This document shows positions 610-9,624 of a DNA stretch of 63,051 bases, piece after piece (the first letter of the stretch is position 1; every line of letters starts with the position of its first letter). The notes beneath the pieces were generated by a model. That model worked only from the letters and a program-made list of their open reading frames with translations. It did not search any database and had not been told where the DNA came from. A program made the translations under genes and the position numbers. This stretch comes from Candidatus Hodarchaeota archaeon (GTDB taxonomy: Archaea; Asgardarchaeota; Heimdallarchaeia; Hodarchaeales; Hodarchaeaceae). The stretch spans positions 1 through 63,051 of the forward strand of contig JAEOTC010000065.1 of NCBI GenBank assembly GCA_016840035.1, in the 5' to 3' direction.

Positions 610-790
610 GATGGATAGGGATATAAGAATAGTCATGACTCAATTTGTCGGCAAGAAAAGCTAGGAAGCTTCTAAAGACACGACGGGAGGAGTCACTGCT
701 CCCCTATCCGGCTGGACAGTAAACACAGACGTGTAACTGACCTTAGGGACTACTTGACTCTCAGCTGGTAATCGTTGGCTGATATTAATG
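610..790 (-). ncRNA. Putative TnpB omega-RNA (reRNA) scaffold plus flank-derived guide; limits approximate
   Basis: TnpB guide RNAs are known to overlap the 3' end of tnpB and the right end. The minus strand has AAGTAGTCCC...GGATAGGGGAGCAGTGACTCCTCCC, which contains a GGGAG/CTCCC stem. Confidence 0.55.
635..654. repeat. Terminal inverted repeat at the tnpB 3' end
   Basis: ATGACTCAATTTGTCGGCAA vs the reverse complement of 2027-2046, ATGACTAGCTTTGTCAGCAA: 16/20 identical. Confidence 0.75.
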
Positions 791-1920
791 GCCGCATTCT
801 GATCGGCATTCAAACGAAGCCCACAAGAGTAACAAAGATATAATCCCCGGGCTTTCCGATTCCTTTTCCGAATAATTCCACACTGACTACATTGTTGAGA
901 GGTATACGCTTCAGATACATTGATAACGGTAATCCCCACCAATTTCGCTTTATATTCTAACATATGAAGGAGTTTGTGAAACAGAATGTGCACAAATGAC
1001 TGATTATTACGTTTACCTAAATTACAATGCTGTTTCCATCCGGGATTATACCCAATCACAAGGGTAGTAATATTGTTTTGGAAACAATGATTGATTATCA
1101 GTCGTGAGGTTTGATGAAAGAAATTAGTGATTCTATTTGCCCGTTTCCGCTGGAAAGCTAAGATTCGGTTTGTCATCGTTTGCTGGTTGTGTTTCTTTGC
1201 AAGGGACTTATAGGAGGCTAATTGCTTATTGTACCATTGATTGATGGACTTTACCACCCCGCCTTTGACGAGTAACCCGTCTGACGTAGTTACGAGGTTG
1301 GTAACTCCAATATCAATGCCAATGGCTCTTGAAGGACCTAGAGAGGTAGGGAATGCTTGGACATCCACGGTATACAAGAATTCCATGATAAACCGATCAT
1401 AATACGGCACTAAGCGTGCCCCCGTACAGGTTTCCGCAGTTATCGGGAGATTCCCTACGAGAAACGTCGGGAATCCCCGCTCCATCAGGTTCCGGGCGAA
1501 GAGGATCTCTGTGCCTCGGATTCGGACGCGGGGGCGGGGAAAGTTTAACATATGGAGGCTATCTTTGGGTTTATAACCTGGAAGGCGGGGTCTGCCTTGA
1601 AAGTGACTTGGATCTTTCTTCCACGCTTTTATCGCCTGAAAATAGCTTCTCCAGGTTTGTTCGATCTGTCTGAGGACTTGCTGGGGGAGATAACTATCTG
1701 AGATGTCTTTTAGCGCCAGGTATACAGGGTCATGTTTTAGCTGATGATACAGGGTTGTATATTGCACCCATTTCCCAGTCTCAAAGAATTCCTGGCGTAC
1801 CTGGTACGTGGCATAATTATACAAATTCTTGGCTCGAGTACACAGATCCACGAATATAGGGCGGGATTTTATCTGAATTCTGATCGTTAATTGAGGTGTG
1901 GTTTGTTTTTTTGTTCGCAT
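661..1920 (-). CDS. tnpB: RNA-guided endonuclease TnpB (rearranged RuvC-II type)
   Basis: N-terminal AKNLYNYA helix; RuvC-I AIGIDIGVTN; RuvC-II LVIGYN with alternative Glu in VSEAYTSQ; zinc finger CSQC...CYSC; RuvC-III NADQNAAINI. Confidence 0.95.
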   Translation of the reverse strand: MRTKKQTTPQLTIRIQIKSRPIFVDLCTRAKNLYNYATYQVRQEFFETGKWVQYTTLYHQLKHDPVYLALKDISDSYLPQQVLRQIEQTWRSYFQAIKAWKKDPSHFQGRPRLPGYKPKDSLHMLNFPRPRVRIRGTEILFARNLMERGFPTFLVGNLPITAETCTGARLVPYYDRFIMEFLYTVDVQAFPTSLGPSRAIGIDIGVTNLVTTSDGLLVKGGVVKSINQWYNKQLASYKSLAKKHNQQTMTNRILAFQRKRANRITNFFHQTSRLIINHCFQNNITTLVIGYNPGWKQHCNLGKRNNQSFVHILFHKLLHMLEYKAKLVGITVINVSEAYTSQQCSQCGIIRKRNRKARGLYLCYSCGLRLNADQNAAINISQRLPAESQVVPKVSYTSVFTVQPDRGAVTPPVVSLEAS

Positions 1921-1946
1921 TCCCAGCTAGTGTTGGTTGGTCCTCC

Positions 1947-1957
1947 TATTTAACTTT
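1947..1957 (-). promoter_or_regulatory. Putative archaeal BRE/TATA promoter of tnpB
   Basis: Minus-strand AAAGTTAAATA ends about 27 nt upstream of the ATG at 1920, the spacing expected for a leaderless archaeal mRNA. Confidence 0.45.
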
Positions 1958-2026
1958 GTATCAGAGAGAGATCACCGAAAATGCCGATATTGACTGTTTT
2001 TCGGGGTCACATTCTTTTTTATCCTT

Positions 2027-2046
2027 TTGCTGACAAAGCTAGTCAT
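2027..2046. repeat. Terminal inverted repeat at the tnpB 5' end
   Basis: TTGCTGACAAAGCTAGTCAT; partner of 635-654. Confidence 0.75.
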
Positions 2047-2105
2047 ATATTCTGTTTTGAAGTATTGAGAAAAATATTTTTCAATCTGGATATAGAAGTT
2101 CCTTC

Positions 2106-9446: not shown

Positions 9447-9624
9447 TTTGTTTTCCTCAAAAATAATCCATTTTTAGTTTGATATTTATGAAAATCTGGT
9501 ATTCTACAAGCTTTTCGGACTAGATATGTGTTTACTCTGTGGATTGATAGAAGTAAATTCTTGATTTTTGTATTTATCTATCCAATAATTTCAAATATGG
9601 TCGTTTGTATATACGAGATTTAGT

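Follow-up and report, generated by a model that had tools for sequence, protein, structure and literature searches.

The tnpB element that lies between the divergent host genes aspS and trxB appears, on comparison with its relatives, to be one old, non-autonomous copy of a transposon family restricted to one genus of Hodarchaeales. The DNA analysed (the window) is the 63,051-nt stretch at positions 1 to 63,051 of contig JAEOTC010000065.1, assembly GCA_016840035.1. The preferred reading, to which we give a probability of roughly 0.4, is that the element is a non-autonomous family member moved in trans as double-stranded DNA, with ends that are alike and a central AT that is exchanged or duplicated. 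As to the mover, a serine-recombinase-like crossover of 2 bp is favoured ahead of a DDE transposase, though only tentatively. Mirror-image ends, a left end (LE) without a hairpin, constrained flanks and the lack of Y1 genes in the genomes richest in the repeat together argue against a single-strand Y1 route. They argue for an enzyme with symmetrical binding of the duplex ends, by which the central AT is either exchanged or duplicated.

Organization of the element

The insertion is situated in the promoter region between aspS (minus strand, real start near 582) and trxB (plus strand, start 2106), and the element extends from about 637 to 2044 plus one AT. Its features and flanks are the following.

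626..634, no strand: host flank on the right-end (RE) side, the final AGTC of which mimics the element tip (sequence and comparison with empty sites)
635..656, minus strand: RE terminal inverted repeat (TIR), terminal AT 635-636 included, which is the 3′ end of the guide-RNA scaffold (the aligned ends of 17 full-length copies stop here)
635..790, minus strand: guide-RNA (omega/reRNA) scaffold region, into which the 3′ end of tnpB extends (consensus structure from 24 copies)
661..1920, minus strand: tnpB, 419 aa (Pfam PF01385 and PF07282; RuvC motifs from the translation)
1941..1975, minus strand: CTCTCTCTG block and TATA-like box ahead of tnpB (kept in 19 of 19 upstream alignments)
2025..2046, minus strand: LE TIR, terminal AT 2045-2046 included (the aligned upstream regions of 19 copies begin here)
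2047..2053, no strand: host flank on the LE side (sequence and comparison with empty sites)

The tnpB reading frame is uninterrupted in the window translation, and its product matches both OrfB_IS605 (PF01385) and Cas12f1-like_TNB (PF07282). A promoter role for tnpB may be ascribed to the CTCTCTCTG block and TATA-like box on sequence grounds. At window positions 1949-1987 this block is 90% identical to C245:1535-1573 of the same genome, located upstream of a solo tnpB of the IS607-linked clade whose protein is only 37% identical; this suggests that the two tnpBs share or have exchanged a promoter module. The longest open reading frame called for aspS begins at an ATG (634-636) made by the junction of element and flank, and the aspS start conserved in relatives is about 52 nt further in (MIYAVNPEW). 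On the other side of the element, the trxB product was looked up by exact match, with no hit.

Distribution and derivatives of the family

The family comprises about 20 full-length tnpB copies and dozens of derivatives (about 360 bp, 144 bp and 31 bp) in seven genomes of one Hodarchaeales genus. The genome names in the genus are those of Hodarchaeales or Heimdallarchaeota, which bears out the first-pass annotation in taking the host for an Asgard archaeon. With one mismatch allowed, the TIR pattern was counted 70 times in G002 (B3_Heim), 71 times in G014, 30 times in G020, 9 times in G004 and 13 times in the genome of the window (G000), against 0–1 for the control, the pattern read backwards; these are the five TIR-rich genomes referred to below. 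Among 400 scanned genomes of the phylum, the pattern was found only in the seven genomes of the genus, plus one single match elsewhere.

Full-length elements measure about 1.41 kb. MITEs of about 340–360 bp retain the LE with the promoter-like block and the RE with the guide-RNA region, while in 31-bp micro-elements the two ends are fused at their shared palindrome. The assembly of the window contains two more full-length copies (C121 and C167, 65–67% protein identity) and one remnant, as well as several solo ends and three MITEs of about 360 bp. The three tnpB-less MITEs lie at C234:10286-10651, C57:31210-31570 and C57:67925-68283, and, since they keep the promoter-like block and the scaffold, they may be a source of guide RNAs acting in trans. 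In G002:C8 two ends lie 2.6 kb apart, but this interval was rejected as a longer element, a host gene being located between solo ends.

In G002, five MITEs at different sites are 98–100% identical and four others are 96–98% identical; hence, they have been moved recently by some agent. The full-length copies have diverged (54–87% protein identity), and the one TnpB protein found identical on six contigs is always at the same locus, so that recent movement is evident for the MITEs only.

Terminal inverted repeats

The 20-nt arms reported in the first-pass annotation, at 635-654 and 2027-2046, are indeed inverted copies matching at 16 of 20 positions. Within the window alone the pair does not rise above chance, as a repeat search of 1.5 kb gave 23 inverted pairs, this one included, that are comparable in length and identity. 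Its significance comes from comparison, because the same arms terminate every related copy. In alignments of 19 upstream regions and 17 downstream ones, the similarity sets in and breaks off at identical bases; the LE starts with ATGAYYAAATTTGTCNGACAAC, and the RE is the reverse complement of this start. The family TIR is 22 nt long and is built on the palindrome TTGTCnGACAA, which lies at both ends. The tips are slightly and consistently different, with ATGACT at the RE in 47 of 48 copies and ATGATC at the LE in 26 of 36. The ends are mirror images, not the asymmetric ends with several short direct motifs of the IS607 type.

The window copy has a peculiarity of its own. Repeats 645-656 and 2025-2036 are both one base short, at the same position in the inner palindrome half (GACAA to GCAA); the arms still mirror one another, and the palindrome of each arm is broken. 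This loss is not present in L096, the closest relative.

If the element were an ordinary IS200/IS605 (IS1341-type) one with PATE derivatives, mobilized in single-stranded form by a Y1 HUH TnpA in trans, the repeat would be a by-product of identical subterminal palindromes. Haloarchaeal tnpB-only elements do have identical near-terminal palindromes and terminal-only deletion derivatives (PMC3119063), which the 31-bp micro-elements match. However, the LE palindrome folds as a single strand into a 4-bp hairpin of −0.8 kcal/mol, worse than shuffled sequences, 199 of 200 of which fold as well, and the inverted repeat continues 9–10 nt past the palindrome to the tips. Arms shared by related copies and an LE without a hairpin sustain the earlier view that these are true terminal inverted repeats rather than IS200/IS605 hairpin ends, and movement by a Y1 enzyme is considered quite improbable.

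Junctions, target and empty sites

Flank statistics were obtained for 84 classifiable ends (36 LE and 48 RE). An AT common to both junctions, noted previously for the window, flanks every family copy on both sides. Read from outside to inside, all 84 ends have a pyrimidine at −1, immediately before the AT (C 66, T 18), with C 28 and T 8 at the LE and C 38 and T 10 at the RE. At −2 the two sides differ (LE: A 21, C 7, G 8, T 0; RE: T 26, C 13, G 5, A 4; Fisher p = 8e-9). In every classified copy the first base of the right flank is a purine, followed mostly by A. Near-identical MITEs differ at these positions, which means that the flank bases are contributed by the target. Read in the orientation of the element, the target is approximately V-C-AT-G-A, and it (C-AT-GA) resembles the RE-AT-LE joint built in silico (TC-AT-GA). 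One MITE (L116) adjoins a 12-nt copy of the LE tip.

These flanks bear on the Y1 route in two ways. The fixed motif VCAT before the left end and a right end that also ends in CAT are in its favour, but the right flank is constrained to a purine, whereas in IS200/IS605 elements it is variable (PMC10711439).

The best orthologous empty site is found on contig C85 of the window's own genome (AT at 9588-9589), which reads AAC-AT-GTC where G014 has a copy, with flanks 86% and 74% identical to those of that copy. The comparison is gapless if one AT is kept, and keeping no AT requires a 2-nt gap. The aspS-trxB spacers of G002 and G004 are also empty and contain neither repeat, which disposes of the possibility, raised earlier, that relatives without tnpB already carry both. 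An AT on both sides of the element and one AT in the empty site fit duplication and crossover equally.

If the AT is duplicated, it would be the 2-bp target-site duplication of a DDE transposase acting in trans by cut-and-paste on a TnpB-carrying, MITE-like passenger. The combination of terminal inverted repeats with a 2-bp flanking repeat and many MITEs is classical for DDE enzymes, and the single AT of the empty site agrees with it. The target-site duplication of IS630/Tc1-mariner elements is TA. Inverted repeats are reported for all DDE-associated TnpB groups, as are solo TnpBs with the ends of transposase-bearing elements (PMC10691335). Against this, a target that mimics the joint of the element is expected of a site-specific recombinase and not of a DDE enzyme, and the DDE reading is regarded as doubtful. 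Duplication of 4 bp (CATG) was rejected, since many copies have different outer bases on their left and right.

The direct repeat TAGTCAT is present where it had been reported, at 630-636 and 2040-2046, but the 7-bp overlap or target duplication deduced from it does not hold in general: across the 84 ends, only the AT and the adjoining pyrimidine or purine are constant. Because only the AT and the pyrimidine recur and the empty sites are free of repeats, the 7-bp repeat of the window is explained as the AT plus flank bases that chance to mimic the element tip. This repeat and the CATGA shared by several copies are points in favour of a tyrosine recombinase (host XerA or an integrase) exchanging strands over a 6–8 bp overlap that includes CATGA. 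In most copies, however, the shared stretch is only 2–5 nt (e.g., 3 nt in L112), and the insertion sites are many and scattered, unlike those of Xer-dependent elements at dif. A tyrosine recombinase is considered highly improbable.

TnpB nuclease and guide RNA

The RuvC motifs were read from the window translation against the criteria of PMC10711439. RuvC-I is DIG, not the DPG of Fanzor, and RuvC-III is NAD. The canonical position of the RuvC-II glutamate is occupied by glycine (VIGYN), and an alternative glutamate is found six residues before the first CxxC of the zinc finger. Alternative-glutamate TnpBs are described in PMC10711439, and an E-to-G rearrangement as in the window TnpB is described for RIIr-5 (PMC10691335). 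The IS607-linked relative G014:C54 also has VIGYN, and the Y1-linked TnpB on C178 of the window's genome has the canonical VLENL. The window TnpB is an active-looking RuvC nuclease with the features of OMEGA nucleases (RuvC D-E-D with the alternative E, a C4 zinc finger and a scaffold ending at the right end).

The consensus fold of 24 right ends contains hairpins with compensatory changes and a long-range helix, in which an invariant GUGACU pairs with the terminal AGUCAU about 60 nt downstream. This helix implies that the scaffold ends exactly at the RE tip, AU included. The same assimilation into the scaffold is described for the fixed right-flank base of IS607 and the target-site duplication of Fanzor elements (PMC10711439). 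No Rfam family was found over the element. The predicted TAM is VCAT, and the resident copy would be spared, since T is absent four bases before the left junction and the element's own RE reads TCAT.

Relationship to other TnpBs

In a quick maximum-likelihood tree, the window family adjoins the clade containing IS607-linked TnpBs, and the Y1-linked TnpBs form a distant outgroup on a very long branch, which is a further argument against the Y1 route. The nearest relatives linked to a TnpA are of the IS607 type (37–42% identity), and the identity to Y1-linked TnpBs is 27–28%. This kinship to IS607 passengers, together with a target that mimics the element joint, is the reason why a serine-type 2-bp crossover is favoured. 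Against it stand the palindromic AT core, from which a serine recombinase could derive no polarity, and the known IS607 elements, which use GG and lack terminal inverted repeats (PMC6188088).

Search for the mobilizing enzyme

No transposase adjoins any family copy, in accordance with the first-pass conclusion that a tnpB-only element must be moved in trans, and no tnpA, the Y1 partner included, is found beside any of more than 25 copies. Profile PF01797 (Y1) had no match in G002, G014, G020 and G004. The only Y1 gene of the window's own genome is broken and is situated beside a TnpB 28% identical to that of the window, and both results weigh against the Y1 route. The respective locus (C178:1-1600, L001) is a classical IS605-type pair, in which a TGA-interrupted Y1 tnpA is divergent from a tnpB of the canonical-E form, truncated where the contig ends.

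Among the five TIR-rich genomes, PF00239 identified serine recombinases only in G014 and G002; there was no match in G020 or G004, and the window's own genome gave only a weak 32-residue fragment. Both G014 enzymes are IS607-type TnpAs located beside tnpBs at most ~42% identical. The second of them was rejected as the mover because its element is another IS607, in which the TnpB is canonical and 532 aa long. The G002:C2 resolvase was also rejected: it is a Hin/resolvase-type gene beside a reverse transcriptase and a methylase in a defence-like island, with no TIR nearby. Throughout, a serine TnpA adjoins only tnpBs that are 34–42% identical and have other ends, and it is absent from all family copies. 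The end examined in an IS607-linked relative of the genus is asymmetric, reading GATAACCTA, with no inverted repeat.

A DDE enzyme was sought with one family, PF13358 (IS630-type), which had no match in the five TIR-rich genomes. No recombinase or transposase lies between family ends among the TIR pairs of G000 and G002 or the G014 matches listed, all of which are tnpB elements, MITEs or micro-elements. A metagenome scan with the TIR pattern (17 specified bases) yielded, among the matches listed, mostly chance hits, the real ones being MITEs, micro-elements and one tnpB fragment; no longer element with the same ends was among them. These results, and the fact that the window's own genome is almost without repeated DNA, speak against DDE transposition.

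The five TIR-rich genomes were found to have just one recombinase in common, a Xer-like (XerA-like) tyrosine recombinase, which is a point for the tyrosine reading. On the other side, the Xer-like enzyme is the sole tyrosine recombinase of G014 and G004, and hijacking of XerA was rejected because the insertion sites are many. Cas1, considered with the idea of an Asgard Cas1-TnpB in mind, was discarded as well: it had no match in G002, G014, G020 and G004, and the only match was a fragment in G013. All these genomes are MAGs of 84–93% completeness, and high-copy or extrachromosomal genes are easily missed in them; hence, the absence of an enzyme is weak evidence.

Comparison with known systems and proposed mechanism

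According to PMC3627910, tnpB-only elements lack terminal inverted repeats. The haloarchaeal IS1341-type tnpB-only elements and PATEs (PMC3119063) are similar to the window family in carrying tnpB only, in having the same short palindrome near both ends, in their terminal-only derivatives and in moving without an intact TnpA in the genome. They differ in being described without inverted terminal repeats, whereas in the window family the repeat reaches the tips, both flanks are constrained and the palindrome is too short for a stable hairpin.

The first-pass annotation treated TIR-bounded TnpBs as essentially eukaryotic. This is contradicted by Altae-Tran et al., as inverted-repeat TnpB transposons have already been described in prokaryotes. 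In the later PMC10691335, every DDE-associated TnpB group is reported to have inverted repeats, and solo TnpBs are reported to be mobilized in trans. The TIR-bearing DDE transposons with TnpB or Fanzor (DDE-1 to DDE-6, PMC10691335; Fanzor1 and Fanzor2*, PMC10711439) share with the window family symmetrical ends with a short flanking repeat, the inclusion of the repeat and flanking bases in the guide-RNA scaffold, solo copies moved in trans and TnpBs with the alternative RuvC-II glutamate. The window family differs from them in that its ends are associated with no known DDE gene, its flanking repeat is AT, its RuvC-I is DIG versus Fanzor DPG and its host is archaeal.

The IS607 family (serine TnpA; IS607, IS1535, ISC1926, ISXfa1 and the C. 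botulinum IStron) is alike in its double-stranded DNA logic, in the same dinucleotide found at both junctions and once in the empty site, in the fixed right-flank bases within the guide-RNA scaffold and in a target that resembles the TAM; moreover, the nearest TnpA-linked TnpBs of the genus are of this type. The differences are the core (AT in the window family, GG in IS607), the ends (true terminal inverted repeats versus asymmetric ends with short direct motifs) and the lack of a serine TnpA inside any family copy and in most host assemblies.

According to the preferred reading, an enzyme supplied in trans would bind both duplex ends as mirror images and exchange strands across the central AT. 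In the excised circle, the RE-AT-LE joint would form a 42-bp palindrome, and the circle would recombine with CATG-like sites resembling this joint. After excision, TnpB and its guide RNA could cut the emptied site, so that the element would be restored by homing, while the element's own right end, reading TCAT, would escape TnpB cutting.

The movement of tnpB-only elements in genomes without TnpA has been a standing problem from 2011 or earlier (PMC3119063), and a literature search found no paper on TnpB in Hodarchaeales. The family is a clean test case, with sharp mirror-image ends, a 4-bp target, recently multiplied MITEs and, in Hodarchaeales, an intact TnpB with the alternative glutamate, a type that has been linked to the origins of Fanzor. 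The identity of the mover would show whether a further transposase class has acquired TnpB in archaea. Both the predicted TAM (VCAT) and the compact guide-RNA scaffold lend themselves to direct tests. The present analysis adds the LE/RE flank asymmetry with the TAM prediction, the tip pairing within the guide-RNA scaffold, the identity classes of the MITEs, the empty site on C85 and contig L193.

Palindromes on contig L193

The mover could, in principle, be an unrecognised enzyme, perhaps encoded on an unbinned extrachromosomal element and acting on the 42-bp palindromic RE-AT-LE joint, although we consider this unlikely. If true, the family would represent a new superfamily of transposons associated with TnpB, in the order of archaea that is nearest to eukaryotes, and a prokaryotic counterpart of the Fanzor TIR/TSD lifestyle. 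Searches of viral contigs and genome contigs for the joint-type pattern gave no match, and a looser viral scan gave only single chance matches.

Metagenome contig L193 (VAPL010027350.1) is AT-rich and virus-like. Its proteins, compared with Pfam, PHROGs and a protein atlas, gave only a weak CopG-like match. Between its ORFan genes lie six intergenic palindromes of about 42 bp, at 1366, 2172, 2746, 4191, 4848 and 5419. Each consists of a pair of TTGTCGGACA(A) sites, both placed 8 nt from the AT at the centre, which is exactly the geometry of the family RE-AT-LE joint. The L193 repeats could be a cassette array or an operator or terminator motif.
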